DNA from: an uncultured Gemmatimonadota bacterium
GTDB lineage: Bacteria > JAAXHH01
Assembly: GCA_951812955.1 (NCBI GenBank)
Contig: OX638340.1
Coordinates: forward strand, 2,944,001 to 3,008,000
Reading direction: 5' to 3'
Length of the DNA stretch: 64,000 bases
Positions 15,688 to 32,421 of this stretch are shown in pieces. The position numbers were made by a program, and so were the translations under genes. Each line of letters starts with the position of its first letter. Positions within the stretch are counted from its first letter, which is position 1. The notes under the pieces were generated by a model. That model was given only the letters and a program-made list of their open reading frames with translations. It searched no databases and was not told where the DNA came from.

Positions 15688-15987
15688 GATATCCCCCTCG
15701 CTGTTGTACGGGTATCTGTTAACATCGTCATCGTTTTGGTATTCAAACGGGACCGCGCTGCATCACCACGCGGTCACGTATAATATATCAGGATTACGCA
15801 TACGAAAACAGCAATAATCCCTGCGGGGCAATGGGCGGTTGACAATTCCCCTGTATTTCATTAAAAATAACTGAAATCCACCACCAGGAACCATACGCAG
15901 GCGTGATTCACGAAATACGCGGATAACTCGACACCCCGACCGCGCCAACCACACACCACTTCGAGCTACGCCAAGCCGAGGACATCG

Positions 15988-16911: not shown

Positions 16912-17170
16912 ACGGGGCCCGGCGAGAGATAGCTATTATCAAACTCGCACCGGGTAACGTCGTCGATTGCGAACCTGTAGACTTTAAGGGCGCCGTCGTT
17001 CGGCGTACTTTTGACCAGCGTCCTCTCAACCGGTGTTCTTTCGGCCGGCGTCCTCGTATTCTCCTCTAACCCAGCCTGCGTGTCCATCCTGATCAGCCCG
17101 CAAATCCGTTGACGTAACGGCCTCTTCCCCTTAGCTTCCGCTTTGCTTGTAATACCTAAACGCCTTATCA

Positions 17171-18664
17171 ATGTATCATCCCGTTTCCCGCGGAGCCCCC
17201 GTGAACGTCATCTGCATCTGCCTGGACACCTTTCGCGCCGACATCATCGGCCCGGGCAGGAAGTTCAGCCACGCGCACACGCCCAATCTCGACGCTTTCC
17301 ACGGCGGCAGCATCCGGTTCAACCGAGCGTATGGCGAAGGGCAGCCCACGCTGCAGGTCCGCCGCGCGCTGTTCACCGGGATGCGCAGTTTCCCCTGGCG
17401 TTACAACTTCGACCGGCGCGGACACTGGCATCATGCTCCAGGCTGGCACAAGATTCCCCCGGAGCAGGACACGATCGCCGAGGTGCTGCTGGAACGAGGG
17501 TACCTGACGGCCCTCATCGCCGACACCTATCATATGTTCAAGCCCACCATGAACTTTGCCCGGGGATTCGCGCACCTGGATTTTGTGCGGGGGCAGGAAT
17601 CGGACAACTGGAAAAGCGGTGACCCCCGGCTGGTGGAGGCGCAGCTCGCCCGGCACGTCCGGTCGCCCGTGGACATGGCCCGGCACGTGGGACTTGTGAA
17701 CTACCTGCTCAACCAGCGACACCGGAGGGAAAAGGACGACTACCAGTGCGCCCGGGTATTCAATTCGGCCTGCGAGTGGCTGGCCGACAACCATACGGCG
17801 GGGCCCTTCTTCCTGTGGGTAGACAGCTTCGATCCCCACGAGCCATGGGATCCGCCGCCGGAATATGCGGACCGGTACTGCGAGCATGACGGCCTCGATT
17901 TCATCCAGCCCGGCCCCGCTTACAGTAGAGGCGGGCCAGGCGGGGGCGGCCCGGGCGGACCATCGGAAGCGGAACTCAGGCGCATCGAGGCGCTGTACCT
18001 CGGCGAGGTCACCCTCGTGGACGAGTATGTGGGCCGGTTGCTGAACGCGGCCGCGGACCTGAACCTGCTCGATGAGACCATGGTCGTGATTCTGTCGGAC
18101 CACGGCACACAACTGCTGGACCAGGGGAAGTTCGGCAAGGGGCCTGATGAACTGCATCCCTTCAATACCCAGCTCAACCTCATGATGCGGGTACCTGGCG
18201 GGCCCGCGGACCTCGACGTGGACGCCTTCGTGCAAAACCACGACCTCATGCCCACGCTGCTCGGACGGCTCGGGATGCGGGCGGAGTGGACGGACGGGGA
18301 GGACCTGTGGCCGTTGGTCACGGGCGAAAAGGCATCGGTTCGCGACCGCGTGGTGACCGGATGGGCGGGCTTTGTCACGGGGAACGCCGTGGGCAGGGCC
18401 AGCGTCCGAGACGATCGCTGGAACTACTGCACGGCGGTGGGGTACGAGGACGAGGCTGGCGATGAACTCTTCGACCTGGAGGCTGATCCGGAAGAGCGGC
18501 GAAACGTGGCCGGTCTCCATCCAGAGATCGTCGCGGATCGCCGTACCGACGTGGAGGCCGTGATCGGCCAGCCTCTCCCCGGACAGATGGTGGAGGTGTG
18601 CGATGCGGCCCCCGGGCCCATGTCGCACTGGCTGGGACAGTTGCTGAAGAAGAGACAGGGTTGA
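17171..18664 (+). CDS. Sulfatase family protein (alkaline-phosphatase superfamily)
   Basis: ICICLDTFRAD N-terminal motif (C-x-x-x-R-like) and the general arylsulfatase fold. The larger antisense ORF 17168..18850 has arbitrary composition and is a shadow. Confidence 0.7.
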   Translation: MYHPVSRGAPVNVICICLDTFRADIIGPGRKFSHAHTPNLDAFHGGSIRFNRAYGEGQPTLQVRRALFTGMRSFPWRYNFDRRGHWHHAPGWHKIPPEQDTIAEVLLERGYLTALIADTYHMFKPTMNFARGFAHLDFVRGQESDNWKSGDPRLVEAQLARHVRSPVDMARHVGLVNYLLNQRHRREKDDYQCARVFNSACEWLADNHTAGPFFLWVDSFDPHEPWDPPPEYADRYCEHDGLDFIQPGPAYSRGGPGGGGPGGPSEAELRRIEALYLGEVTLVDEYVGRLLNAAADLNLLDETMVVILSDHGTQLLDQGKFGKGPDELHPFNTQLNLMMRVPGGPADLDVDAFVQNHDLMPTLLGRLGMRAEWTDGEDLWPLVTGEKASVRDRVVTGWAGFVTGNAVGRASVRDDRWNYCTAVGYEDEAGDELFDLEADPEERRNVAGLHPEIVADRRTDVEAVIGQPLPGQMVEVCDAAPGPMSHWLGQLLKKRQG

Positions 18665-18815
18665 ATCGTGGGTGGGCGGCGTGTAGGCGGCGTGTAAGCC
18701 GATCGCGCCCAACGCCGAAGCCATGCGCGCACCGAACCGCGCATAAACGATGGTCTGAAATAGCGGTCTGAAATAGCCATGAAGAAGAGTATGCAATCCA
18801 AACCTTTTATTGAGT

Positions 18816-18829
18816 TGTACAATTGTACA
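18816..18829. promoter_or_regulatory. Perfect 14-bp palindrome TGTACAATTGTACA (candidate operator) ~35 nt upstream of SDR gene 18865
   Basis: Exact reverse-complement symmetry in an AT-rich patch within a GC-rich genome. It is preceded by a perfect 13-bp tandem repeat (GGTCTGAAATAGC)x2 at 18751-18776. Confidence 0.4.
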
Positions 18830-18864
18830 TCTGATGTGGTCTTCATGCAACAGGAGTATTCAGC

Positions 18865-19647
18865 ATGCGGTTAGCAGGCAGGGCGGCCATCGTGACCGGC
18901 GCGGGGGACGGGATAGGGCGCGGGATCGCGCTGGCGCTTGCCCGGGAAGGCGCTTCGGTGGCGGTGTGCGACGTGAACGCCGACACGGTGACGGAGACCG
19001 GACGGCTGGTCGCCGAGACGGGACGGCCCGTCCTGGCGGAATCTCTGGACATCACCGACCACGGCGGGGTCAGGTCCTTCGTAGAGAGGGCGGCGTCCCG
19101 GATGGGGCGGATCGACATCCTGGTTAATAACGCCGCCATCATGCCCGTGTCCCCCGTCGAAGAGCAGGACGAAGCGGTGATGGCCCGCATCCTCTCCGTC
19201 AACCTGCTGGCCCCCGCCGTCTTCAGCAAGTATTGTATCCCGCACATGCGAGCCGCGGGCGGCGGATCGATCATTCACATGGCGAGTGTCACGGGCCACA
19301 ATGGGCATCCGGGGGTCGCGGTCTACGGGGCGACGAAGGGTGGACTGATCGCGCTGGCCCGGGGACAGGCCATGGAACTCGCCGTGGACAGGATCAGGGT
19401 GAATACAGTCTCTCCCGGCACGGTGGATTCCCCCATGTTGCACAACTTCGTGAATGAGAACGCCGAGGATCCGGAAGCCGCGCTCAGGGCCTTCGATCGG
19501 CTGCACCCCATCGGCCGGATTGCCACCATCGAGGAGGTCGCCAACGTCTTCGTGTTCCTGGCGAGCGACGAATCCAGCGATATCACGGCGGCGGATATCC
19601 GCTGCGACGGCGGCTACGCGGTCCAGGGCCGGCAGCCGACGGAATAA
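18865..19647 (+). CDS. SDR family oxidoreductase
   Basis: TGAGDGIGRGIA, NNAA, and a YGATK catalytic pair. Confidence 0.88.
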   Translation: MRLAGRAAIVTGAGDGIGRGIALALAREGASVAVCDVNADTVTETGRLVAETGRPVLAESLDITDHGGVRSFVERAASRMGRIDILVNNAAIMPVSPVEEQDEAVMARILSVNLLAPAVFSKYCIPHMRAAGGGSIIHMASVTGHNGHPGVAVYGATKGGLIALARGQAMELAVDRIRVNTVSPGTVDSPMLHNFVNENAEDPEAALRAFDRLHPIGRIATIEEVANVFVFLASDESSDITAADIRCDGGYAVQGRQPTE

Positions 19648-19730
19648 CGGCAAGGAGAAGATCCGCTCATCTGCGACGGCGGCTACGCGGTCCAGGGCCG
19701 GCAGCCGACGGAATGACGGCTAGATTTCAT
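19594..19730. repeat. ~57-bp direct duplication of the 3' end of the SDR gene (copy 1 19602-19650, copy 2 19671-19719)
   Basis: CTGCGACGGCGGCTACGCGGTCCAGGGCCGGCAGCCGACGGAAT(A/G)ACGG occurs twice. Copy 2 carries TGA instead of TAA. The flanking ATCCGCT is also duplicated. Confidence 0.85.
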
Positions 19731-19759
19731 CGGCCAGGAAACAGCTGCAAGGAGAACAT

Positions 19760-20743
19760 ATGTCAGTAGGAGTTTGCGCCTATTCATTCAATACGGGTCC
19801 CGACGCCTTCGAGCTCATGGACATGGCCGTCGAACACGGACTGGCCGGCGTGGAGTTCCCCCCGGACGACTGCTTGCCCGACCTGGCGCCGGCCACGCTG
19901 GAATCGGCCCGCGCCTGTGCGGAGGAACGCGGACTGTTCGTCGTGGCCGACGGCGGTCAGGTGGAGCGGGAGATGCTGGAGCGTCTCATCCCCGCGGCCT
20001 CCGGCCTCGGCGCGTCGACGTTGCGGGTGGTCATGAGCGGCGTACTCGGCGGGGACCGGCGTCCGCTGGCGGGACGGTGGAATGCCCATCTCGCGGATTG
20101 CAGGGATATTTTGCGCGAAGTCCTGCCGAAGGCGGAAGAGCATGGCGTGACCATCGCGGTGGAAAATCACTCCGACGCCACGTCCCACGACATGGCCTGG
20201 CTGTGCGAGGAATTGGACAGCCCGTACGTCGGCATTACGCTCGACGTGGGCAACGTGCTGGCGGTGTGTGAAGAACCCTTCGGGTACACGGAACGGCTGC
20301 TGCCCCATCTCCGTCATATCCACCTCAAGGACTATACGCTGCATCCTTCCAACGAGGGATTCCGCATAGCGCGATGCCCGCTGGGAGCAGGCGTGGTCGA
20401 CTATCCCGCCCTGCTGTCCCTGATCGACGGTTACCACGGCACGCGGGACCAGGGGGGCGGGATCGCGAAGACCATCGAACTGGGCGCCATATACGCCCGT
20501 CACGTGCGCATGCTCATGGCCGATTACTGGGCGGAGTATCCGGAACGGGACGTTAAAGAACTGTTGCCCTTTCTGCGGTTGTACTGGGCCCATGTTCGAC
20601 CGAAGGAAGAAGACTGGCGAACGCCCAGAGAGAAGGACGAACCGGTCGAGGTGCTGAAGGCATACGAGAATCGGCAATTCGAAGATAGCGTGTCCTATCT
20701 GAAGGAAATCGGGGCCGTCCAATCGAACTCCGTTACAACCTGA
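19760..20743 (+). CDS. Sugar phosphate isomerase/epimerase (xylose-isomerase-like TIM barrel)
   Basis: AVENH and HLKD metal-binding blocks typical of the AP endonuclease 2/xylose isomerase-like family. Confidence 0.7.
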   Translation: MSVGVCAYSFNTGPDAFELMDMAVEHGLAGVEFPPDDCLPDLAPATLESARACAEERGLFVVADGGQVEREMLERLIPAASGLGASTLRVVMSGVLGGDRRPLAGRWNAHLADCRDILREVLPKAEEHGVTIAVENHSDATSHDMAWLCEELDSPYVGITLDVGNVLAVCEEPFGYTERLLPHLRHIHLKDYTLHPSNEGFRIARCPLGAGVVDYPALLSLIDGYHGTRDQGGGIAKTIELGAIYARHVRMLMADYWAEYPERDVKELLPFLRLYWAHVRPKEEDWRTPREKDEPVEVLKAYENRQFEDSVSYLKEIGAVQSNSVTT

Positions 20744-20760
20744 ACAAGGCGGGTCGGCAA

Positions 20761-21855
20761 ATGAGCTTTTCCGTTAATTCCGGTGACCACCTTGAAACGA
20801 AGGCGGTCGAAATGAAGATGGAACGCCTCGACCAGTCCGACATGCATGGTTCCATCGGTTCGATACCCGACCAGGTGGAAGCGGCCTGGGGGGATATGAC
20901 GGGGCGCGTTTTCCCCGACGCCTGCCGCGACGTGGACCACGTCGTGGTAGCCGGGATGGGTGGATCGGCCCTGGGCGCGCATCTGATAATGGACGTATTC
21001 CGCGACAGGCTGTCCGTACCGGTGACCGTGGTTTCAGATTACCAGGCGCCCGCGTGGATCGACGAACGGACACTCATCGTGTTGTCCAGTTATTCCGGGG
21101 GCACGGAGGAGGTGCTGAACATGGCGCAGCAGGGCGCGTCCCGTAACATTCCCATGATCGCGCTGACTACCGGAGGCGAACTGGCGGCGCTCGCCGAAGG
21201 AAATCGCTGGCCGGCCGTAGTGTTCGGCAGCGAACTGAATACGTGCGGGCAGCCTCGGATCGGCCTGGGTTACGCGGTGACGTACCTACTCGGGATTTTC
21301 CGGCAACTGGGCTTCGTAGACCTCGCCGCGACGGAGATTACCCGGGCCATCATGCTGCTACGTGAGACGAATCAGGATTACAGGGAACCGGGAGAGGAAA
21401 ACCCCGCCTTCGAGCTGGCGCGATCGACGCAGGGCAAAACGGTGATGATCATGGCCTCCGAGCATCTCACCGGCAATGCCCACATCATGGCCAACCAGTG
21501 GAACGAGAATGCCAAGAACATGGCGGCGTGGTTCGCCATACCCGAGCTCAACCACCATCTGCTCGAAGGGATGACCTACCCCCGGGAAAACCAAAACGGG
21601 CTCGTCGCCGTGCTGGTCCAGTCCGACCTCTACGATCCGCGCAACCGCCGCCGACACGAGATCACCCGCGCCTTGCTCGAGGAACAGGAGATCGCCTGCC
21701 CGGTCATCAAGCCACGGGGAGATACGGCCCTGGAACAGGCTTTCGACCTGCTCCTGCTCGGCACCTATGCCAGTTTCTACCAGGCGGTCTTAAACGCAAC
21801 CGATCCATCCCCCATTCCCTGGGTCGATCAGTTCAAGCGTCGCATGGCCGGCTAA
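20761..21855 (+). CDS. Bifunctional phosphoglucose/phosphomannose isomerase-like SIS-domain protein
   Basis: SIS phosphosugar-binding block (VVVAGMGGSALGAHL.. LSSYSGGTEE). Archaeal-type PGI/PMI family. The start codon is uncertain (alternatives near 20815). Confidence 0.6.
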   Translation: MSFSVNSGDHLETKAVEMKMERLDQSDMHGSIGSIPDQVEAAWGDMTGRVFPDACRDVDHVVVAGMGGSALGAHLIMDVFRDRLSVPVTVVSDYQAPAWIDERTLIVLSSYSGGTEEVLNMAQQGASRNIPMIALTTGGELAALAEGNRWPAVVFGSELNTCGQPRIGLGYAVTYLLGIFRQLGFVDLAATEITRAIMLLRETNQDYREPGEENPAFELARSTQGKTVMIMASEHLTGNAHIMANQWNENAKNMAAWFAIPELNHHLLEGMTYPRENQNGLVAVLVQSDLYDPRNRRRHEITRALLEEQEIACPVIKPRGDTALEQAFDLLLLGTYASFYQAVLNATDPSPIPWVDQFKRRMAG

Positions 21856-21914
21856 AGGCACCACCCGCCACGATGTAGATCCCTTCCGGGTCACGCATCG
21901 AAAGACGGTACGGC

Positions 21915-24900
21915 ATGAGTGAAATCGTTACATACCTTGGTGGAAAGACGCTGCTGATTACCGGCGCCACGGGATTCCTCGCGAAAGCGGTCGTGGAAAA
22001 GATCCTGCGGTGCGCGCCGGAGGTCGGCCGCGTATACCTTGTCGTCAGGCCCCGCCGCAAGAAGGACGGCACTACGCTGTCGGCGGCGGAGCGCGTGGAG
22101 GATGAAATACTCCAGTCCGCCGCTTTCGCCCGTTTGCGCGAGATGCACGGCGACCGATTCGCACCATTCATGGCGGAGAAGGTTCATGCTGTCGAGGGGG
22201 ATCTGACCCTGGACCACCTGGGATTGGAGCCGGAACTGTACCGGCTTCTTTCCGAAGAGGTCAATGTCGTAATGACCTGTGCCGCTTCCGTTACCTTCGA
22301 CGAAGAAATCGACGCCGCCCTGCAGCTGAACGCTCTGGGCGCCAGGCGGATGATGGAATTCGCCAGAACGTGCAACCGCGCCATACTCGTCCACGTATCC
22401 ACGGCCTATGTCAATGGCCAGCTCAAGGGGCGCATCCCGGAAGTTCCACCACGGCCGGACTGGTCCATGGCCCAGGAAATGGGGATCAGCGACGCGCCAT
22501 TCGACCTGGAAAAGGAAATCCGGGGTATTTTGGCGAGGGCCGAAGAAATCCATGTTGCGTCACGATCGGCTGTCCAGCAGAAACGGTTCCGTAGGTCAGC
22601 CCTTCAACAGAACGCGCGGCCCACGCAGCGCTGGCTTGACGCCCAGATGGAGACCTTCCGTAAACGCTGGCTGAAGGAACAGCTTATCGAAGAAGGGATG
22701 CGCCGGGGACAGCAGTGGGGCTGGCACGACAGCTACACCTTGACGAAGGCCATGGGCGAACAACTGATCGTCAAGCATCGGGGCGAACTGCCCACGGTCA
22801 TCATTCGTCCGTCCATCGTGGAAAGCAGTCTCGTCGAGCCGGAACCGGGATGGATAGAAGGGCTCAAGGTCGCCGACCCGCTGATCGACGCGGTGAGCAA
22901 GGGCCGCCTGCCGGATTTTCCCGGCGATAAGGACATGATCGTGGACATCATCCCGGTGGACATGGTGGTAAACTCCATGCTGGCCGCCATGGAGCACACG
23001 GTCCGGGAGGGCGGAATCAGCGTGTACCACGTGTCTACGGGCGACCGGAATCCAATCCGATTCCAACAGGCCTTCGAACTTTCCTACGAGTACTTCCTGC
23101 AGCATCCACGCCTGAACCGGAACAACGAACCCATACCCATCCGGCGCTGGACCTATCCGACCCTCGCCCAGTTCAGACGGCGGTACAACCTGCGCTACGT
23201 CTATCCACTGAACACCGCGCTCTGGGTGTTCAACCGCTTCAGCCGCATCACCTTCCTGAATAACTGGAAGCGCAGAATAACCGTGCTGAAATCGGCGATC
23301 TCCCGCATGCTCTACTACGCTTCGATCTACAGTCCCTACACGTCCCTGGAATGCACCTTCGAAACCGGTCGGACGGTCGGCCTGCACGAACGGCTCGGGC
23401 CCGATGACCGGCTGCTGTTCAACGGCGACGTATCCAGAATACAATGGAAGACCTACTTCCAGGATATTCATATTCCAGGGTTGAAGCGCCACGTGTTGAA
23501 GACCGACGAACCCAGGCCCACGGTTACAGAAGAGGAGGAGGTTGCGGAGCGGTCGGGGTTTACCCAGGCGGAGGATGACCCCCTGCCCCACCTCGACACG
23601 TTGACGGATATATTGGCCAAGAGCGCGGATATGTACGGAGACAAGACCGCGATGCAGATGGAGCGTGAGGGGGTATGGGTCCGGTATTCTTTCAAGGACG
23701 TGCACGACCTGGCCGGCCACATGGGCTGGCAATGGCGGTCCGGCGGGCTGCACCCGGGCGACCGCGTCCTGCTGTTTTCGGAAAACAAGCCCGAATGGGG
23801 GATCGCCTGTTTTGCGGGTCTGGTGGCCGGAGCGGTGATCGTGCCCGTAGACCGGCGGTCATCGGCGCAGGAAGTGTGGCGCATTGCCCGGTTCACCGGT
23901 TCGAAGGCTGTCCTGTGTTCGGAAAGCGGTTTCGAGATGCTGAAAGCCTCGGAAGCACCGGACCTGGAGGTCGCTTTCTGGAATATCGACAACTACGGCC
24001 TCCCTTTCGATGCCTCGCGGCCGTCGGCGTCGCCGGTCGCCTTGAACGAGGAACCGCCCGCCTGGGCGCCGGTTCAACCCGATGCGCCGGCCGCCATCAT
24101 GTTTACACGGGGCATGGCTGCGGAGTCGCACGGCGTGGTGCTGTCCCATCGGAATTTCGTATCGAACCTGCTGTCTCTTGCCGAGATTCTGCGCGCCTAC
24201 CGGACCGACCATTTCCTCTCTCTGCTGCCCATGAGCCAGGCCCTCGAGTTCACCGGGGGATTCCTCATGCCCTTCTACGCGGGAGCGACCATTACCTATA
24301 CCGCTTCGGTACGTCCTCGATCCCTGGTCGCCCTGATGGTTGAATCCGAAATCAACTGCCTGATCGCGGCGCCCCGGATTTTCGGACTGATGCACCGGCC
24401 GCTGCAGCGTGCGGCCCGTGAATCGGATACGGACGTGGTTTCCCGCATGCGACTGCTGGTCAGCGGCGGCGGTACGCTCGCGTCGGATCTCTACCACGCC
24501 TACCGCGATTTCGGCCTCACCATACACGAGGGATACGGGCTCACGGAAGCGGCGCCGGTCGTGGCCGTGAACCCCATGGACCGAAGCAAACCGTCCTCCG
24601 TCGGCATCGCCCTTCCGGAGGTCGACGTGCGTATCGCAAATCCCGATGAGGATGGGAAGGGAGAAATCGTCGTGCGCGGGTCGAACGTCATGCTGGGATA
24701 TTTCGAGAACCCGTCGGCGACGGAGCATCGCATCCGCGACGGCTGGCTTCACACGGGGGACATCGGTTACATCGACCGGGACGGCTACTTGTACATCGCC
24801 GACCGCATGGAGCGCAGCCGCGGATCGAAGGATGTACCGGATGGTCGTCCGGGGAACGGCAAGTCCCGCAGCGCCACCGCCTTCTTCGACGTGGACGGAA

Positions 24901-25535
24901 CCATCGTCGACGCCACGATCGTACACTACTACGCCTTTTACAGGACCTGGGGTTATTCCGTTCCGAAGCGTCTGCTTTGGACCCTGGGCTTTCTGCCGAA
25001 GGTCGTCTATTACATGGTGCTGGACAAAATCAGCAGAAGCCGTTTCAACCAGGTCTTCTACAGGCAATACCGGGGATTCGAGCGCGGCGAGTGCGTATCC
25101 CGCAGCGAACGCCTCTTCAACGAAGTCATGCGGCCGCGCATGTTCACCGGCGCCGTCGAACGCATTCGGGAGCATCAGCAAAGAGGCGAGCGCGTGGTCC
25201 TGGTCACCGGATCCCTCGATTTTATCGTGGAACCCCTCGCGGAGTACACCAAGGCCGACGATCTCATCGCCCTGTCCATGAAGGAGGAGAACGGCCGGCT
25301 GACGGGAGAGCCGGAAGGGCCGCCGATCGGCGACGAGGAGAAGGCCCGTATCGTCCGGGATTACGCCGAACGGCGCGGCATCGACCTGGACCGAAGTTAC
25401 GCCTATGCCGACAGCAGATCGGACCGGCCCATGCTGGACCTGGTGGGACACGCCGTCGTGGTGAACCCGGGCGGGAAACTCAGAAAGGCTGCGGAAGCCG
25501 GCGGCTGGGAAGTCGTTAGCTGGACCCACGTATGA
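21915..25535 (+). CDS. Tri-domain fusion: fatty acyl-CoA reductase (NAD_binding_4/male-sterility type) + ANL-superfamily acyl-adenylating domain + HAD-IB phosphatase-like domain
   Basis: N-terminus: LITGATGFLAKAV Rossmann fold and VSTAYV (Y-x-x-x-K) of FARs. Middle: GYGLTEAAPV and LHTGDIGYIDRDGYLYIADR adenylation motifs, but the P-loop is degenerate (FTRGMAAESHG versus TSGTTGxPKG). C-terminus: FFDVDGTIVD DxDGT motif and VLVTGS of HAD-IB. Confidence 0.75.
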   Translation: MSEIVTYLGGKTLLITGATGFLAKAVVEKILRCAPEVGRVYLVVRPRRKKDGTTLSAAERVEDEILQSAAFARLREMHGDRFAPFMAEKVHAVEGDLTLDHLGLEPELYRLLSEEVNVVMTCAASVTFDEEIDAALQLNALGARRMMEFARTCNRAILVHVSTAYVNGQLKGRIPEVPPRPDWSMAQEMGISDAPFDLEKEIRGILARAEEIHVASRSAVQQKRFRRSALQQNARPTQRWLDAQMETFRKRWLKEQLIEEGMRRGQQWGWHDSYTLTKAMGEQLIVKHRGELPTVIIRPSIVESSLVEPEPGWIEGLKVADPLIDAVSKGRLPDFPGDKDMIVDIIPVDMVVNSMLAAMEHTVREGGISVYHVSTGDRNPIRFQQAFELSYEYFLQHPRLNRNNEPIPIRRWTYPTLAQFRRRYNLRYVYPLNTALWVFNRFSRITFLNNWKRRITVLKSAISRMLYYASIYSPYTSLECTFETGRTVGLHERLGPDDRLLFNGDVSRIQWKTYFQDIHIPGLKRHVLKTDEPRPTVTEEEEVAERSGFTQAEDDPLPHLDTLTDILAKSADMYGDKTAMQMEREGVWVRYSFKDVHDLAGHMGWQWRSGGLHPGDRVLLFSENKPEWGIACFAGLVAGAVIVPVDRRSSAQEVWRIARFTGSKAVLCSESGFEMLKASEAPDLEVAFWNIDNYGLPFDASRPSASPVALNEEPPAWAPVQPDAPAAIMFTRGMAAESHGVVLSHRNFVSNLLSLAEILRAYRTDHFLSLLPMSQALEFTGGFLMPFYAGATITYTASVRPRSLVALMVESEINCLIAAPRIFGLMHRPLQRAARESDTDVVSRMRLLVSGGGTLASDLYHAYRDFGLTIHEGYGLTEAAPVVAVNPMDRSKPSSVGIALPEVDVRIANPDEDGKGEIVVRGSNVMLGYFENPSATEHRIRDGWLHTGDIGYIDRDGYLYIADRMERSRGSKDVPDGRPGNGKSRSATAFFDVDGTIVDATIVHYYAFYRTWGYSVPKRLLWTLGFLPKVVYYMVLDKISRSRFNQVFYRQYRGFERGECVSRSERLFNEVMRPRMFTGAVERIREHQQRGERVVLVTGSLDFIVEPLAEYTKADDLIALSMKEENGRLTGEPEGPPIGDEEKARIVRDYAERRGIDLDRSYAYADSRSDRPMLDLVGHAVVVNPGGKLRKAAEAGGWEVVSWTHV

Positions 25536-26767
25536 AAGCGGTTCAATACATCAAAAGCGTACCCAGGTACCTGTTCGTACGGACGATCGGCCATCGCAGC
25601 CCCGTTTTGGCGACCGGCGCCCTGTCGTGCATACGCATGGTAGACGTCGATCCCCCGGTGCTTCCGACTCCGGCATGGGTGCGCATCAGACCGCGCTTGA
25701 CCGGCATATGCGGATCAGACCTCTCCACCATCAAGGCCGGCGGAAGCCCTTACTTTTCCCCCCTGATATCCTCGCCTTTTGTCCTTGGACACGAAGTGGT
25801 GGGCGAGGTCCTGGAGACCGGTCCCGAATCAGGGGGCGTGTCCCGGGGGGACCGCGTGGCCATCGAACCCGGTCTGTGCTGCCCTGTTCGGGGCATCGAC
25901 CCGCCGTGCCCGTCGTGCCGGGAGGGAGATTTCGGCCTGTGTGAGATGGTTATGCACGGCGATATTTCCCCTGGCATTCAGACGGGGTATTGCAGGGACA
26001 CGGGCGGCGGATGGAGCACATCCCTGGTCGCACACCCCTTCCAGGTCCATCCGGTGCCCGAGCGGCTGACCGATGAGGAAGCGGTCCTGATAGAACCATT
26101 CAGCTGTTGCCTGCACGCCGTGATGAAATCCTTTCCCTCCGATGATGAGACGGTGCTCGTAATCGGGTGCGGTGCGATCGGGTTGCTTACTATCGCATCC
26201 ATACGGGCCCTGGGAGCCAAATGCCGGATTCTCGCCGCCGCCCGTTATGGCCATCAGGAGACCCTGGCGGCTGAACTGGGCGCCGACCGGGTCATCGGCC
26301 GGGGCGACGGCCTATACGAAAGCTTGAGCGAGGTGACCGGGGCGGAAATCCATCGTCCGGAGATCGGGCGGCCCGTATTCATCGGCGGCGCAAACCGGAC
26401 CTTCGATTGTGTCGGTTCCTCCCGCTCCATCGACGACGCCCTTCGACTGACCGGATCCGGTGGATGCGTCACCGTCGTAGGCATGCCGGGTATACCTTCC
26501 GGCATCGACTGGACAGCCGTCTGGTACAAGGAATTGAAAGTCCAGGGCGCGTATGCGTACGGGACGGAAAAATATGAAAACCGATCCGTGCGGACCTTCG
26601 ACCTTGCCATGCGGTTGCTGGAGGAGGGCAAGGTCGATCTGAAACCCCTGTTAACGGACCTTTATCCTCTGAAGGACTACCGGAAGGCGATCGGCCGGGC
26701 GCTGAAAGCCGGAAGCCAGGGCGCGGTCAAGGTGGCCTTCGACCTGCGAGACGAACCGGCGCGGTAG
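25532..26767 (+). CDS. Zinc-dependent alcohol dehydrogenase (MDR family, threonine/sorbitol dehydrogenase-like)
   Basis: GHEVVGEV, a structural-Zn Cys cluster (CCPVRGIDPPCPSCREGDFGLC) and a GCGAIG Rossmann motif. It overlaps the upstream stop (ATGA). Confidence 0.85.
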   Translation: MKAVQYIKSVPRYLFVRTIGHRSPVLATGALSCIRMVDVDPPVLPTPAWVRIRPRLTGICGSDLSTIKAGGSPYFSPLISSPFVLGHEVVGEVLETGPESGGVSRGDRVAIEPGLCCPVRGIDPPCPSCREGDFGLCEMVMHGDISPGIQTGYCRDTGGGWSTSLVAHPFQVHPVPERLTDEEAVLIEPFSCCLHAVMKSFPSDDETVLVIGCGAIGLLTIASIRALGAKCRILAAARYGHQETLAAELGADRVIGRGDGLYESLSEVTGAEIHRPEIGRPVFIGGANRTFDCVGSSRSIDDALRLTGSGGCVTVVGMPGIPSGIDWTAVWYKELKVQGAYAYGTEKYENRSVRTFDLAMRLLEEGKVDLKPLLTDLYPLKDYRKAIGRALKAGSQGAVKVAFDLRDEPAR

Positions 26768-26805
26768 CCCGGATTCATTGAGAAAACGCAAAACGGAGTT
26801 CCCCC

Positions 26806-28491
26806 GTGCCCTACCTGAAGATTCTGCGCGCGGAAGTTCCGCAAGTGCATGTCCTCTCAAAGGATGTCACTACCCTGGGCCGTTCCGGGGAAGTCGATAT
26901 GCCCATCAGAGGGGACCGCGGTGTCTCCAAACTCCACGCGCGGATCGAAAGCGAGGCTGCGGGCTACGTGATCACGGACCTGGGCAGCCGGAACGGTACG
27001 TATGTCAACGATCATCCGGTCGCCGGGGAACCCGCCCCGCTGCTTTCAGGCGATCATATCAGGGTCGGACAGACTGTCCTGGTATTTGAAGGGGGAGAAC
27101 CGGATGGGACGCATTCCGCGGGCACGGGAACCGCGGATGCGGAGGCCGTGGCGAGTAAGGACGATCCGCAGGCGCCGGCGTCGCTGTTCCGGGCGGATCA
27201 ACTGCCCTATACGCAGGCTGGCCGCCCGCCCGTCCGTCAGCGTGCAGGCGCGGACAACCACCTGCTGAAGCTGACGGATCTGAGCAAGGCCGTCATGACG
27301 GTGCGCAGCGAAGCGGAACTGGGAGATCTCGTTACCCGGCGCCTGCTCGAGTGGCTGGAGGCCGACTGCTGTGCGATCGTCCATCCCCTGGACACCGAGG
27401 ATGGTTACGACCTCGAGATAAGGTCGCTGGTATCCCGTACCGGAAGAGAAGCCGGCGGCATCTCAATCAGCACCACCGCGGTGAAACAGGCCCTGGAAAA
27501 CCGGATGGCCTCCATCACCACGAATGCCCTGGGGGATGAACGGTTCAGGGACCAGCACAGCGTCATCCTCCGCGGGCTGGCGTCCATTCTGTGCGTACCC
27601 CTGTGGCATGAAGACCGGGTATTCGGTCTGCTGTACCTCGATTCATCGGATCCCGCCGCGCAGTTTACCGTGGATCACCTCGGTCTCGTCAGCGCGGCCG
27701 CCAACCTGGCCGCCATCAAGACCGACAACCTGCGCCTGTTCGACGCGGCCGTCGCCAAGAGCGCGCTGGACAAGGAACTGGCCCTGGCCGGGGAGATTCA
27801 GGCGGGCCTGCTGCCCGGAGAGCGCTACGTGTTCCAACGTCTTGCCTGCGCGGGAAAGCTCCAGTCCTGCGCGGCGATCGGTGGCGACTACTACGATTTT
27901 ATTCCTATTGGCGAGAACGTCCTGACGGTGACGATCGCCGACGTTACCGGACACGGTCCCTCCAGCGCGATGCTCATGGTCGCCTGCAAGACCATGCTGA
28001 CCACCCTCATAGAGATCCGGGTTCCCCTGACGGAACGGGTGACGCGGTTGAATGAATACATGGTCCACCACGCTGCATCCAACCAGTTCATTACTTTCTT
28101 CCACGCCGAAATCGACCTGGAGCACCGGTCGCTGAACTATTGCAACGCCGGCCACAATCCCCCCATGCTCCTGCCGCCCGGCGACGCGCCGCCTGCGAGA
28201 CTGCATTCCGCAGGCCCGCCGTTGGGGATCGTTTCCTGTCCCTTTGACCTGGAGACCGTGGATTTTCCGCCAGGGTCCAGGCTGGTCATGTACACGGACG
28301 GAATCACCGAGGCCTCAGACCCGGAAGGGGTGCTTTACGAGGAAGACCGGCTGGAATCGCTGCTGACAAGGTGTCGCCGGCAGGACGCGGACGCGTTGAA
28401 AAACAGCATCCTGGCGGAACTTCTGGAATTCACCGCGGGACGGGAACAGGATGACGACGTTACCCTGGCCGTAGTGGAATACACCACCTAG
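26806..28491 (+). CDS. FHA-GAF-PP2C (SpoIIE/RsbU-type) serine/threonine phosphatase
   Basis: The N-terminal FHA domain (GRSGEVDMPIRGDRGVSKLHARI... NGTYVN) is followed by a GAF domain and then a PP2C domain (GGDYYDF ... ADVTGHG ... YTDGITE). Confidence 0.8.
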   Translation: MPYLKILRAEVPQVHVLSKDVTTLGRSGEVDMPIRGDRGVSKLHARIESEAAGYVITDLGSRNGTYVNDHPVAGEPAPLLSGDHIRVGQTVLVFEGGEPDGTHSAGTGTADAEAVASKDDPQAPASLFRADQLPYTQAGRPPVRQRAGADNHLLKLTDLSKAVMTVRSEAELGDLVTRRLLEWLEADCCAIVHPLDTEDGYDLEIRSLVSRTGREAGGISISTTAVKQALENRMASITTNALGDERFRDQHSVILRGLASILCVPLWHEDRVFGLLYLDSSDPAAQFTVDHLGLVSAAANLAAIKTDNLRLFDAAVAKSALDKELALAGEIQAGLLPGERYVFQRLACAGKLQSCAAIGGDYYDFIPIGENVLTVTIADVTGHGPSSAMLMVACKTMLTTLIEIRVPLTERVTRLNEYMVHHAASNQFITFFHAEIDLEHRSLNYCNAGHNPPMLLPPGDAPPARLHSAGPPLGIVSCPFDLETVDFPPGSRLVMYTDGITEASDPEGVLYEEDRLESLLTRCRRQDADALKNSILAELLEFTAGREQDDDVTLAVVEYTT

Positions 28492-28589
28492 CCAGACCTC
28501 CGGGTGAACGCCGCCCGCGGCGTGACCCGCGGTTCCGACCCGCATGTCCTCCGCCCGCCTCAGAACAGTCGCCCGGCCAAGGCGCCAGT

Positions 28590-29642
28590 CTATATCCAAC
28601 CGTGATCGATGCTTACCGGCGTGCCGGACTGCTGATGCGTCCACTGTCCCCCGCTGGCCAGCGGTACCTCCCGGCCGGAAATGGACGACTGTTCGGCGGC
28701 GAACAGGATCTCCATGACGTGACGGCCCCATTCACCGGGCGTGGGCGGTTCGATGTCCTTGCGGATGGACTCGACAAACCCCTTCCACTCGTTGTACATG
28801 GGATGGGGCGGGTCGTCGAAGGGCACGTCCTCCCACTTGTTGTCCTTGCCGACCCTGACGTACTTCTCGCCCGATTCGCTGAAGCGCAGCGAGCCGTTCG
28901 CGCAGATCACCTGGCATTCGTGGTTGGGCCCGCCGTCGGCGTAACCCACGGCCACCGCCACGCCCGCCGTGCCGTTCTTGTACCGGATGAAGGCCGTGGA
29001 GGAGTCGTCCGCGGCCTGGTAGTGCGCCCGGTTGCCAATGGAGGCGGAGACCGATATTGCCTGGGAAGCCATGACCCAGGAGAGGCGGTCCACCACGTGG
29101 ACGCCGTTGGTCATCCACATGCCGCCGCCGTGGAACCTGCTGCGGTACTGGGGCCTGCGGCCGCCGTGCCCCCACTGCTTGGACATGTAGCATACTGCCG
29201 TGATAGCAGGGCCAAGCGCTCCGGAGTCCAGGATTTCCTTCGCCTTGACGCTGGTGCCGTAGAAATGCTGCGTCAGGCCCACCATGAGCTTGACGCGATT
29301 GGCCGCGGCTGCGGCGATCATGTCGTCGCACTGGTCCAGGCTGATTGCCATGGGTTTCTCCACCAGGACGTGCTTGCCGGCGTTGCAGGCGTCCACGGTA
29401 AGGCGGTGGTGAAGCTGGTGGCCAAGGACGATGGCCACGGCTTCGACCTCGTCGTCCGCCAACAGCTCCGTGTGGGTTTCGTAACCCCTGGGGATATCGT
29501 ACTTTTCCATGTATTCACGTCGCTTTTCTTCGAGCAGGTCCGCGACCGCGACGATCTCCACGCCAACCTGGTTGGTGATGGCCTCGCAGTGCGGACGGGC
29601 GATGCCGCCCAGGCCGATTATACCGACGCGCAGATTAGACAC
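28590..29642 (-). CDS. Gfo/Idh/MocA family oxidoreductase
   Basis: MSNLRVGIIGLGGIARPH... EKPMA ... are family blocks. Confidence 0.88.
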   Translation of the reverse strand: MSNLRVGIIGLGGIARPHCEAITNQVGVEIVAVADLLEEKRREYMEKYDIPRGYETHTELLADDEVEAVAIVLGHQLHHRLTVDACNAGKHVLVEKPMAISLDQCDDMIAAAAANRVKLMVGLTQHFYGTSVKAKEILDSGALGPAITAVCYMSKQWGHGGRRPQYRSRFHGGGMWMTNGVHVVDRLSWVMASQAISVSASIGNRAHYQAADDSSTAFIRYKNGTAGVAVAVGYADGGPNHECQVICANGSLRFSESGEKYVRVGKDNKWEDVPFDDPPHPMYNEWKGFVESIRKDIEPPTPGEWGRHVMEILFAAEQSSISGREVPLASGGQWTHQQSGTPVSIDHGWI

Positions 29643-29939
29643 AGGTAACGCTCCTTTGATGGGTGCATGGAAGTGGGCTGGCGGGGGTGGTTCAGATCAC
29701 GCCACCGCCGCGATCATATTCTGCTATCAGCTTCCTTCGGAATCTGTACGCTACTATCTGAATATAAAAGACGGCAGATCTTCTGCAGGCAATGGATTTA
29801 ACAACGCGAAACTTCAACATACCATCGCCCATCAGCATCGCCTTATACCGGTCACAGGTTGTTTCAGTCCGGATTATCGGCCTGAGTTCAAATATTCTGT
29901 ATAGATGAAGGTCATGTCATTATATTAGCGATCGTCTGT

Positions 29940-29962
29940 CAGCGCAGACATCATCTGCGCTG
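29940..29962. other. Perfect 9-bp stem/5-nt loop hairpin (CAGCGCAGA-CATCA-TCTGCGCTG) within a ~465-bp AT-rich ORF-free divergent intergenic region (29643-30180)
   Basis: Read directly from the sequence; no coding potential in the surrounding region. Confidence 0.5.
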
Positions 29963-30180
29963 TAGTAAAGTGATCAGTAATACACCCCCGCCAAGAATTT
30001 CTCGTAGCGTGCATTTTATTCCACATATCATCAATTACGCCCGCGATCCCAGGTCTGTGTTCAAAGCCTTGCCGGGTTCAGTCGCAATGGCGTTTGCAAC
30101 AATAGAGCTTGTTAAGTAAGAAGCACCTGTTTTTCTGGTTGGATAACACGTGGATCTATGGAACAGAATGGAATCTCAGG

Positions 30181-32421
30181 ATGGTTAATCTAGTACAGTC
30201 GTTTACGAGCCAGTGGAAGCAGGCGACGTTTGCCAGTGTGATCATGACATTGATCCTCATTCCTTATAGCTTCGCACTCTCGGCACTGATATTCCACGGT
30301 CCGCTTCAATCATTCACCTTGCCCGGGACCGGCCTACTGATATACGGCGCATTGATCTCCTGCTTATTGTTTGCCCTGGCCGGCAGCCACCGTGGTGTGC
30401 TCGCCGGGCCACACGAAATCGCCGCCGCGGCGTTCGCAACGATGAGCGCCGCCGTTGGAGTGAGTATGGTGAACGCGCCTGCCGAAGCGACTTTCATGAC
30501 CATGATCACTCTGTTCATACTCACCAGTGTGATTACAGGCCTGATCTTCTTTGGGATCGGTATCAGCCGGCTGTCCTACTTGCTGCGTTTCATCCCCTAT
30601 CCGGTTGCGGCCGGGTGTTTCGCCGGTTTCGGCTGGATTCTCTGCGTGGCCGCCCTGTCTATGATGAGTTCGATGTCACTTGAATGGCATACACTTCCTC
30701 GCCTTTTCGATGCCGATACAGTTTGGAAATGGATACCTGGTATCGCATTCGGAGTCATTCTATTGGTTGTCACGCGACGCGGAAACGCCATTCCCGTTCT
30801 AATTTGGAGTTTCCTGATCCTCACCGGAGTTTTTCATCTGGTTCTTTACGTTTTTGGCATTTCGATTGAAACGGCCAAGTCGGCCAATCTCCTTTGGTCC
30901 GGAAGCGGCGTTACCGGCGGCTTATGGCCCGTGTTCGGCCTTGATGATTTCAGCCTCGTGGACTGGAACGTGGTTGGGGAGCAGATTCCAGCGGTCATGG
31001 TCGTTGTATTGCTCATGGTACTGTGCTTGCTATTGAATTCGAACATAATGGAGGTGGCCTCCGGCGAGGAAATCAATCTTGACAAGGAATTCCGCGTGGC
31101 CGGCGCGGCGGGCATAATTGCCGGGGCGGGAGGCAGTCTCCCGGGGATACACTTCCCGGTATTGTCATCGACATCGCAAAAGCTGGGCGCCGACACGCCG
31201 TGGACGGGAGTCCTGACCTCACTGTGGTTAGGGTTGACCCTGATCTTCGGCAGCGCGGTACTGGAACTGATCCCGATATCATTAACAGGTGGGTTGCTGT
31301 TCTTCATTGGCGTTGACCTGCTGAACAACTGGTTGATTAAAGTCCGCCGGAGGGTCAGTGGAATCGAACACGGCGTCATCATCCTCATGGCACTGGGTAT
31401 TGTCGTCTTCGGATTTGTCGAAGGCATAGGCATCGGGATGCTTGCCAGCCTTTGTCCTTTGGCCGTTCATCTCCTACGGCTGGAACCGGTTGTGTCGTTG
31501 GAGACTGGAACGGACCATCGCAGCGCCAGGGTCAGGTCCGTACCCGACCGGGGCATTCTCCTTGCGCATGCTGAGCGGATCAAGATCGTCCGGTTGTGCG
31601 GCTATATGTACTTCGTCATAAATTACCGGTTGATGAATCACCTTAAGAAACTTATGGGACAGTCGCCTTCTCCGAAGTTCATCGTGCTCGACTGCTCGGA
31701 GGTCAAGTGGTTCGATGCATCTGCGATCAGTACGTTATGCATGTTTCTCTATACCACCGGATCCAGCGGGGTACGGGTCTTGTTTGCAGCCCCTCCAGCT
31801 CAGCTTCAGTCAAGTCTGGCTCATGATCTTCCAGACGCGTTGCGGAGCAGGATCTGGTTTGAAAAGAATCTGGACCATGCGCTGGAACGATGTGAAGACG
31901 CAATCATCGCGTCTGAAATCCGAAAACACGACGTTTCTTCGGAGGACGACCGGACAAACCTGCTGGATCTCGTGGGCGATGTAATGGAAGACCATCTTGA
32001 TCGGCAGGTTCGCTTCGAAAACCTGGTCGAGCAACTTATGCCCTGGCTGAAAAAGTGCGAATACGATACGGGGGACATGCTGGCCGGATCGCGCAATCTT
32101 CACGACGGGATGCAGCTCGTCGTCAGTGGCCGGGTTTCGGTCTACGATGCAATGGGCGCGCGGCTCCGCCAATACGGGCCCGGCAATGTTGTTGAACCCA
32201 GGGCCGCGTTCGAATTGCTCCGACCCTCTTCCAGAGCCATTGCGGAAGAGCCCTGTGTAACGATGAAGCTAACACCAGGCCAGAGACGCGGCCTGGAATC
32301 TGAGGTGCCCGGTCTCATCTGTGACCTCTACGGATACATGCTGACCGACGACGCCTGGACCGCTTCAGTCACCCCTGGAGAGAATCATGGACTTTATCCG
32401 GAAGCGCAGAAGCAAGGGTAA
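30181..32421 (+). CDS. SulP/SLC26 family anion transporter with C-terminal STAS and cyclic-nucleotide-binding-like domain
   Basis: SulP TM core, a STAS block (KFIVLDCSEVKWFDASAI), then a cNMP-like beta-roll (GDMLAGSRNLHDGMQLVVSGRVSVYD...YGPGNVVEPRAAFELL). An upstream TTG at 30109 is a possible alternative start. Confidence 0.75.
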   Translation: MVNLVQSFTSQWKQATFASVIMTLILIPYSFALSALIFHGPLQSFTLPGTGLLIYGALISCLLFALAGSHRGVLAGPHEIAAAAFATMSAAVGVSMVNAPAEATFMTMITLFILTSVITGLIFFGIGISRLSYLLRFIPYPVAAGCFAGFGWILCVAALSMMSSMSLEWHTLPRLFDADTVWKWIPGIAFGVILLVVTRRGNAIPVLIWSFLILTGVFHLVLYVFGISIETAKSANLLWSGSGVTGGLWPVFGLDDFSLVDWNVVGEQIPAVMVVVLLMVLCLLLNSNIMEVASGEEINLDKEFRVAGAAGIIAGAGGSLPGIHFPVLSSTSQKLGADTPWTGVLTSLWLGLTLIFGSAVLELIPISLTGGLLFFIGVDLLNNWLIKVRRRVSGIEHGVIILMALGIVVFGFVEGIGIGMLASLCPLAVHLLRLEPVVSLETGTDHRSARVRSVPDRGILLAHAERIKIVRLCGYMYFVINYRLMNHLKKLMGQSPSPKFIVLDCSEVKWFDASAISTLCMFLYTTGSSGVRVLFAAPPAQLQSSLAHDLPDALRSRIWFEKNLDHALERCEDAIIASEIRKHDVSSEDDRTNLLDLVGDVMEDHLDRQVRFENLVEQLMPWLKKCEYDTGDMLAGSRNLHDGMQLVVSGRVSVYDAMGARLRQYGPGNVVEPRAAFELLRPSSRAIAEEPCVTMKLTPGQRRGLESEVPGLICDLYGYMLTDDAWTASVTPGENHGLYPEAQKQG

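Follow-up and report, generated by a model that had tools for sequence, protein, structure and literature searches.

The best-described relatives of the system considered here are the ElbD proteins of myxobacterial ether-lipid clusters. In ElbD, an N-terminal domain resembling fatty acyl-CoA reductases (FAR) is followed by an acyl-CoA synthetase, an acyl carrier protein (ACP) and an AGPAT-like acyltransferase (PMC9131029, PMC9426513), and the same operon encodes ElbB, a HAD-like phosphohydrolase (PMC9131029, PMC9426513, PMC13012113). Homologues in Latescibacterota have been counted by BLAST in metagenome-assembled genomes (MAGs): one survey gives ElbD homologues in 50 of 92 Black Sea MAGs (PMC11868695), and another lists ‘standalone elbD hits’ in sponge MAGs (bioRxiv 10.64898/2026.06.23.733905). 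Here we describe a reduced and fused member of this family. It lies in a stretch of 64,000 nucleotides (the window) from an uncultured Gemmatimonadota bacterium (GenBank assembly GCA_951812955.1, contig OX638340.1, positions 2,944,001 to 3,008,000), where one gene encodes a FAR, the N-terminal subdomain of an ANL adenylation domain with degenerate motifs, and a HAD-IB phosphatase. A zinc-dependent alcohol dehydrogenase (Zn-ADH) gene follows directly (Table 1). In the parts of the two surveys available to us, neither the truncated, HAD-fused form nor its pseudo-ANL domain nor the partnership with Zn-ADH is described.

In the window protein, as in Myxococcus xanthus ElbD (MXAN_1528, UniProt Q1DC43), a FAR-like reductase stands at the N-terminus and an acyl-CoA-synthetase-type domain comes next; the tie to an ElbB-like HAD phosphohydrolase is shared with the elbB-elbE cluster. 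Unlike ElbD, the window protein has no ANL C-terminal subdomain, no ACP and no AGPAT-like acyltransferase; its P-loop and A4 histidine are degenerate, and the HAD is carried in cis. Its genetic partner is a zinc-dependent medium-chain dehydrogenase/reductase (MDR), as opposed to the epimerase-type short-chain dehydrogenase/reductase (SDR) ElbE/ElbA, and the window protein itself shares only ~30% identity with ElbD from a canonical cluster (L022). Operons of the type ElbD-HAD-ZnADH (L018, L025, L028 and 18 metagenome loci) have the same products, order and overlapping junctions, with HAD and ADH 50–64% identical to those of the window, but keep a complete ElbD (~1415–1460 aa) and a separate HAD of ~230 aa. 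The FAR-HAD fusions of Rubrobacteraceae and other Actinomycetota likewise join FAR, Sterile and HAD-IB in one chain ahead of the same Zn-ADH subfamily. Unlike the window protein, they lack an ANL remnant, are ~38% identical to it in the FAR and have PlsY upstream, and they probably derived independently.

Two more distant systems invite comparison. Three steps of the eukaryotic ether-lipid pathway (FAR1, alkyl-dihydroxyacetone phosphate (DHAP) reductase and lipid phosphate phosphatase) parallel, by analogy, the activities proposed below (PMC9131029 and established knowledge); the eukaryotic reductase and phosphatase, however, belong to other families, and AGPS and GNPAT have no counterpart in the window. 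Carboxylic acid reductases (CAR, A-T-R) share an ANL domain and a thioester reductase with the window protein. Unlike its R-A arrangement, theirs runs in the opposite order, requires a phosphopantetheinyl carrier and has an intact adenylation domain. An earlier note, made from the letters of this DNA, had drawn the comparison with CAR, which does not apply because the fusion protein has no carrier domain. It had also called the R-A order non-canonical, whereas reductase-then-adenylation is the normal order of ElbD (PMC9131029, PMC9426513). Nor is the HAD foreign to this setting: the domain corresponds to an ElbB-like gene directly downstream of ElbD in L018, L025, L028 and L023. The note's suggestion of kinship with ElbD ether-lipid enzymes was borne out, as the fusion nests inside the ElbD-like family.

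Pfam and NCBIfam searches found FAR, ANL and HAD-IB in one chain of 1206 residues, as the note had described, and set the domain boundaries. The NAD_binding_4 domain scored 225 bits against a curated cut-off of 20.1 and the Sterile domain 44.9 against 35.4; AMP-binding matched residues 568–930 (E 3.2e-62), HAD (PF12710) residues 989–1174 (E 1e-39), and TIGR01490 (HAD-IB) gave 145 bits against 98.3. The middle region is therefore of the adenylation family, as the note had claimed, but consists of the N-terminal subdomain only, which it had missed. Pfam found no AMP-binding_C, PP-binding (PF00550) or acyltransferase (PF01553) domain in the protein; the relatives carry both of the latter. The strings quoted in the note (TGATGFLA, STAYV, FFDVDGT, GYGLTE and FTRGMAAESHG) all occur in the translation. 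Residues 4–529 match a fatty acyl-CoA reductase of solved structure (PDB 7eoz, E 2e-88), and the FAR motifs (Rossmann TGATGFLA, STAYV and YTLTK) are intact and kept in 22–23 of 23 fused orthologues. HAD motifs I–IV (DVDGT, VTGS, K, DSxSD) are present in all 24 fused-type proteins (24/24).

The adenylation domain, by comparison with the other parts, is conspicuously incomplete. All NCBIfam long-chain acyl-CoA ligase models match only to about position 400–470 of their 500–640, and every PDB match to an ANL enzyme ends at fusion residues 953–966, the end of the N-terminal domain. The chain departs from the ANL fold at the A8 hinge (IADRMER vs ITGRSKD) and continues as a disordered linker and the HAD; the A10 lysine is missing along with the whole C-terminal subdomain. 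The P-loop, which reads FTRGMAAESHG in 21 of the 23 fused-type proteins, does not fit the A3 consensus [ST]xG[ST]xGxP[KR]G. Compared with the FT[MKSTA]GT.V[DE][PA][RK]G of full-length ElbD relatives, it has lost the threonine and the lysine/arginine. The note had recognised this loop correctly but overlooked a second altered catalytic residue, the A4 histidine, which is replaced by glutamine. Retained are A5 (HEGYGLTEAAP), the TGD of A7 (WLHTGD) and the hinge arginine. Thus GYGLTE and TGD are kept as the note had it, but they represent A5 and A7 rather than A7 and A8, and its ‘YxTGD’ was misread, the residue before TGD being histidine.

An AlphaFold model of residues 546–1206 (mean predicted local distance difference test score, pLDDT, 82) bears out the folds and the disordered linker. 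Confidence is low in the first 12 residues, at 732–737 (the P-loop) and at 965–985 (the linker), with pLDDT <50 at the last two. The model superposes on FadD13 N-domain crystal constructs with TMt 0.85–0.86 and on full-length ANL enzymes with 0.63–0.72. The match is thus to the N-domain only, in the model as in sequence.

Over 14 intact orthologues, the ratio of nonsynonymous to synonymous substitution (dN/dS) was 0.12 for FAR, 0.12–0.13 for Sterile, 0.16–0.17 for the ANL N-domain, 0.14 for HAD, 0.13 for Zn-ADH and ~0.8 for the linker, which varies in length and in some orthologues contains RLDR-type repeats. The ANL remnant is therefore under purifying selection at present. Its past was different. 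With P0032 as outgroup, FAR identity was equal across lineages (58–64%), whereas identity in the ANL N-domain was 63–67% in intact lineages, 52–54% in the fused clade and 61% in a second truncated lineage. The remnant thus diverged faster on the stem of the fused clade, by ~10 points relative to intact lineages. We infer that the domain lost catalysis, changed rapidly and is now kept for a non-catalytic role; that is, it would be a fatty-acid-activating domain that is conserved but probably inactive.

A search of 5.8 billion proteins found 22 clusters with the exact fusion architecture (76–98% identity, 1191–1246 aa). The next-best matches were hundreds of proteins of ~1430–1480 aa with NAD_binding_4, Sterile, AMP-binding, AMP-binding_C, PP-binding and Acyltransferase domains, and the closest non-fused relatives, FAR-ANL-ACP-acyltransferase proteins, are 59–68% identical. 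A genome scan placed the fused gene in 16 loci, from MAGs labelled Candidatus Latescibacterota, Gemmatimonadetes/Gemmatimonadota or just ‘bacterium’; several look sponge- or coral-derived, judging by isolate names alone. The exact architecture, which the note had proposed looking for in databases, thus occurs in a single MAG clade nested in the ElbD-like family, and several of these MAGs carry the label Latescibacterota. The fusion is not an assembly artefact, since independent assemblies contribute the 22 protein clusters and 16 genome loci, among them closed chromosomes of ~3.9 Mb. Closed chromosomes with the fusion include OY762445.1, OZ241838.1, OZ241920.1, OY843748.1 and OZ220749.1. Two copies (L013, CBDEKM010000004.1; L015, OZ220749.1; start 10001 in both) are interrupted early by a stop, at codon 701 in the first and codon 275 in the second. 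Homology continues in another frame in each, and these may be assembly or sequencing errors or real pseudogenes.

The origin of the fusion can be read from less reduced relatives. In Ca. Latescibacteria GCA_016209865.1 (L025) the order is SDR - AP_endonuc_2 - Pyr_redox - PGI - ElbD (1460 aa) - HAD (230 aa) - Zn-ADH, where PGI denotes a phosphoglucose isomerase-type gene. This ElbD is 55% identical to the fusion, and the first 44 residues of its Zn-ADH match the window ADH. A second Latescibacteria locus (L028) reads PGI - ElbD - HAD - ZnADH - FGGY, and a Phycisphaerae MAG (L018) has PlsC-like acyltransferase - ElbD - HAD - ZnADH - diacylglycerol (DAG)-kinase-like, with TGATG and ATGA-type overlaps. 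The L018 HAD is 50% identical to the window HAD domain, in an alignment that starts at the N-terminus of the free protein (RPDNRAATFFDVDGT vs RPGNGKSRSATAFFDVDGT), and the two Zn-ADHs share 51% identity along 409 residues. The HAD of the canonical HAD-Lar_N-ElbD-epimerase cluster (L022) is 36–38% identical to that of the window. Because these less reduced relatives (L025, L028, L018) keep the parts as separate genes, the fusion arose by in-frame loss of ~470 codons. The lost stretch comprised the ANL C-subdomain, the ACP, the acyltransferase and the stop/intergenic junction, so that what was the next gene, encoding the HAD, now continues the chain from the ANL hinge. The Zn-ADH is an ancestral neighbour of the ElbD and HAD genes.

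Two candidate intermediates were rejected. P0023 (1447 aa), with the same degenerate P-loop as the fusion and a full C-terminus, looks like an unfused ancestor, but its contig (L020) is a hybrid. This singleton scaffold (ENA ERZ23495410 scaffold_938, with 200 N) switches sharply at the GYGLTEAAPV codons (~12630–12680). Its left part is a fused-type locus (sulfatase-SDR-TIM-PGI-FAR-ANLn) with 0.9–1.0 nucleotide identity to L004, and its right part a canonical elb cluster (ANL-C-ACP-AT, DAG-kinase-like, CDP-OH transferase) with 0.83–0.97 to L022. L020 is a chimera, by assembly or by recombination between two paralogous loci. Both locus types, fused and canonical, occur in its sample. The other candidate, P0029 (L030), was set aside as a direct precursor because a neighbour-joining (NJ) tree puts it away from the fused clade. 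As a separate observation, the canonical ElbD of L022 (7795–12202) is called as two overlapping open reading frames (755 + 733 aa), a frameshift split at the P-loop that is probably an assembly or sequencing error.

P0029 is informative in its own right. It is a FAR-ANLn protein that ends at the hinge with YITGRVRDMIGTDG and a stop, the HAD gene being separate and 6 nt downstream, and it has its own decayed P-loop (FAGDMGDDLRG) and the same A4 His-to-Gln change. In the NJ tree of the FAR region it groups with P0028, P0030 and P0031 (99% bootstrap), and the fused clade stands beside full-length P0024–26. Deeper nodes carry no support values, and the separation of P0029 also rests on identity ranking. 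Since the tree separates P0029 from the fused clade, hinge truncation appears to have occurred at least twice, independently, and the same catalytic residues seem to have been lost convergently in the two lineages. Other relatives are reduced differently. P0028 (1115 aa; L026/L027) has FAR and a complete ANL, with no ACP, acyltransferase, HAD or ADH; the P0026 clade (L021) has a full ElbD and neither HAD nor ADH. P0027 (L029), 80% identical to the window protein, fuses FAR directly to HAD with an overlapping ZnADH, and in L034, a locus of the same type, FAR, HAD and ADH each have a gene of their own. Taken with the Rubrobacteraceae FAR-HAD fusions, P0029, P0027 and L034 indicate that the ANL-ACP-acyltransferase part is dispensable. 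The P-loop of P0028 is intact and of the family type, and an FHA-GAF-SpoIIE gene lies directly downstream of it.

The Zn-ADH regularly accompanies the HAD and ElbD genes. Its start overlaps the stop of the fusion gene exactly as the earlier note had reported (ATG at 25532–25534, TGA at 25533–25535, as ATGA). Invariant residues include the catalytic zinc ligands C60, H87, E88 and E188, the structural cysteines C117, C126, C129 and C137, and the GxGxxG of G212–G217, and among PDB entries the enzyme comes nearest to threonine, xylitol and sorbitol dehydrogenases and to a ketose reductase. A metagenome scan with the Zn-ADH alignment returned 80 loci, all at least 49% identical, of which 68 had usable upstream sequence. 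A HAD gene or domain lies immediately upstream in 50 of these 68. The HAD-linked loci include 18 with a full ElbD, 8 in which the contig ends inside ElbD, 2 of the window type and 8 with a FAR and no ANL. In the other 18 of the 68 an adjacent HAD is missing, with ElbD nearby in some.

In four of the FAR-only loci, FAR and HAD are joined in one protein of ~750 aa. The family of such FAR-HAD fusions is large, with 1912 matches at E <= 1e-20, and the best 120 of the 1912 (P0241–P0360) all consist of FAR, Sterile and HAD; those among them with a named source are from Rubrobacter, Rubrobacteraceae or Actinomycetota. They are annotated as ‘HAD-IB family hydrolase’ (NCBI) or ‘alcohol-forming fatty acyl-CoA reductase’ (JGI), and one locus (L111, 9001–12470) reads PlsY - [FAR-HAD] - ZnADH with a Lar_N (ElbC-like) gene nearby. 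The order Rubrobacterales is dominated by mixed ether/ester lipids, according to the title of Sinninghe Damste 2023 as cited in PMC11150832 and PMC11181052. These associations suggest that the core conserved in the pathway consists of the reductase, the phosphatase and the zinc dehydrogenase.

On balance, we favour a reading of the fusion as a reduced ElbD that, with the Zn-ADH, would yield a precursor of 1-O-alkylglycerol-type (ether) lipids. Under this reading the ancestral locus was SDR-TIM-PGI-ElbD(FAR-ANL-ACP-acyltransferase)-HAD-ZnADH, and an in-frame deletion that began at the ANL hinge and reached the beginning of the HAD gene left the Zn-ADH translationally coupled. The FAR would reduce acyl-CoA or acyl-ACP taken straight from the cell pool to a fatty aldehyde or alcohol, independent of activation and carrier loading in cis. 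The HAD would dephosphorylate a lipid intermediate at the glycerol-phosphate or DHAP level, the polyol-type Zn-ADH would carry out an accompanying keto/hydroxyl redox step at C2, and acylation would be supplied in trans by other enzymes. The ANL remnant would no longer adenylate and may be kept as a scaffold or ligand binder. The earlier note had already suggested a fatty alcohol or alkylglycerol role with the HAD dephosphorylating a lipid intermediate; the comparative data strengthen this suggestion and fall short of proof.

Several points weigh against an ether-lipid role. Even for M. xanthus ElbD, in vitro work has not established the FAR and acyltransferase activities, and both the ether-forming reaction and the route that leads from fatty acids to alkyl ether lipids are described as unknown (PMC9131029). 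ElbD homologues occur in bacteria where no ether lipids were found, for example Pontiella (PMC11868695), and the link to Rubrobacter ether lipids is one of co-occurrence only. Genes for AGPS, PlsC/PlsY and ElbC (Lar_N) were not found within the 64-kb window, nor was a canonical second ElbD. In the ANL remnant, A5 (GYGLTE), the A7 aspartate and the hinge arginine are kept, because of which residual binding of a nucleotide or acyl group may persist; purifying selection tells us that the remnant matters, not in what way.

A bolder extension can be offered tentatively. FAR, HAD-IB and Zn-dehydrogenase might themselves be what forms the ether bond of 1-O-alkyl-glycerol in aerobic bacteria, independently of AGPS, with the ACS-ACP-acyltransferase half of ElbD as an optional feeding module and the dead ANL reused as a lipid- or nucleotide-binding scaffold or a regulatory domain. 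If so, the series from full ElbD through FAR-pseudoANL-HAD to FAR-HAD would define a minimal ether-lipid synthase.

Among the alternatives, a fatty alcohol or wax module is doubtful, yet it survives best. Here the free fatty alcohols or aldehydes made by the FAR would serve in storage, in signalling or in surface lipids, and HAD and Zn-ADH would be unrelated or accessory, for example in aldehyde-to-alcohol reduction. The resemblance of the FAR part to the stand-alone reductase 7eoz, the JGI name of the FAR-HAD fusions and a weak NCBIfam match between the ADH and Ahr, an aldehyde reductase (7e-15), fit this idea. However, the HAD and this particular Zn-ADH subfamily keep close company with ElbD-type genes in different phyla, and the frequent PlsC/PlsY, DAG-kinase-like and CDP-alcohol transferase neighbours point to glycerolipid chemistry. 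The ADH is nearest to polyol, threonine and ketose reductases rather than fatty aldehyde reductases, and a phosphatase would have no role in wax synthesis.

It is unlikely that the locus instead serves another lipid backbone, such as long-chain 1,2-diols or polyol- or sugar-linked lipids, using PhyH (2-hydroxylation of acyl-CoA), the PGI-type and TIM-barrel isomerases, the SDR and the GFO/IDH enzyme. PhyH genes do recur near ElbD-type genes (window 15988–16911, L021, L023, L028, L034), SDR-TIM-PGI is syntenic with ElbD in several Latescibacteria, and the ADH falls in the polyol-dehydrogenase branch. Synteny within one phylum, however, is weak evidence; the Phycisphaerae-like and Rubrobacter loci have the FAR/HAD/ADH core with no PGI, TIM or PhyH matches (E <= 1e-8), and no such pathway is documented in the literature examined.

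Still less probable is an ANL domain that remains an enzyme, whether through altered chemistry or completed in trans by a separate C-subdomain-ACP-acyltransferase protein. Its dN/dS of 0.17, the retained A5, A7 Asp and hinge Arg, the near-invariant odd P-loop (21/23) and the presence of a canonical elb cluster in a related population (L022) speak for this. Against these stand the loss of the P-loop Thr and Lys/Arg, of the A4 His and of the C-subdomain with the A10 Lys, and the independent decay of the same residues in P0029. Moreover, the sister variants P0027 and L034 do without the domain entirely, the ElbD of L022 has a full set of its own domains and only ~30% identity to the window protein, and the large fusion-bearing chromosomes showed no split C-domain-ACP-AT gene, a weak negative. 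A functionless, decaying relic or an assembly or frameshift artefact, as the stops in L013 and L015 and the chimeric contig L020 might suggest, is scarcely credible. Independent assemblies keep the frame open in 14 genomes and 22 protein clusters, dN/dS is 0.12–0.17 in all four folded parts against a near-neutral linker, and the FAR, HAD and ADH catalytic motifs are invariant.

The locus bears on how such genes are counted. ElbD surveys by BLAST (for example with E below 1e-30 and at least 30% identity, PMC11868695) would be expected to count the truncated protein as an ‘ElbD homologue’, and such miscounting could affect claims of ether-lipid capacity for Latescibacterota from sponges and the Black Sea. 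The locus is part of a natural deletion series in which the activation, carrier and acyltransferase half of ElbD was repeatedly lost. Selection still maintains the FAR, the HAD and a dedicated Zn-dehydrogenase, which nominates a two-gene minimal system. The remnant also offers a clean case of a conserved pseudo-adenylation domain.

Table 1. Features of the fusion gene and its surroundings in the 64,000-nt window.
Feature	Position	Strand	Residues or length	Basis or remark
FAR - truncated pseudo-ANL - HAD-IB fusion gene (ElbD derivative)	21915–25535	+	1206 aa	
FAR catalytic domain, NAD_binding_4	21957–22979	+	15–355	Pfam, E 9.5e-67
FAR C-terminal domain, Sterile	23280–23501	+	456–529	Pfam
ANL N-terminal subdomain only	23616–24812	+	568–966	Pfam, NCBIfam, PDB matches, model
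Degenerate P-loop (A3) FTRGMAAESHG	24102–24134	+	730–740	Alignment of fused-type proteins
Codon of Gln775 in place of conserved A4 His	24237–24239	+	775	LPLYHALEF to LPMSQALEF
Variable disordered linker	24813–24878	+	967–988	dN/dS, length variation, low pLDDT
HAD-IB phosphatase domain	24879–25532	+	989–1206	ElbB-like, once a separate gene
Zn-dependent MDR dehydrogenase, polyol/threonine-dehydrogenase type	25532–26767	+		ADH_N + ADH_zinc_N
SDR	18865–19647	+		Upstream of fusion
AP_endonuc_2 TIM barrel	19760–20743	+		Upstream of fusion
Bacterial PGI-type SIS isomerase	20761–21855	+		Upstream of fusion
PhyH-type Fe/2-oxoglutarate dioxygenase	15988–16911	+		
PhyH-type Fe/2-oxoglutarate dioxygenase	36319–37122	-		
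Aldehyde:ferredoxin oxidoreductase	13759–15687	-		AFOR_N + AFOR_C; adjoins PhyH gene, upstream side
FHA-GAF-SpoIIE (PP2C-type) phosphatase	26806–28491	+		
GFO/IDH/MocA oxidoreductase	28590–29642	-		
SprA_N protein	47099–53401	-	2100 aa	Type IX secretion translocon

Some neighbouring genes recur with the family. The SDR-TIM-PGI block is syntenic in L001–L017, L025, L027 and L030, and in other Latescibacteria it stands beside full-length ElbD; its products may be members of the pathway. PhyH genes occur near ElbD-type genes in L021 (three copies), L023, L028 and L034, and they could conceivably modify the acyl or alkyl chain, for instance by 2-hydroxylation. A promoter and terminator scan of 15700–30200 gave counts near the shuffled expectation. 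An open reading frame on the plus strand opposite the GFO/IDH gene (28602–29648) has no Pfam match and is probably spurious. All fused-type loci continue beyond the Zn-ADH with the FHA-GAF-SpoIIE gene and then the GFO/IDH/MocA gene. In L021, ElbD has a GFO/IDH gene ahead of it and an FHA gene or fragment behind it; the latter holds for L026 as well.

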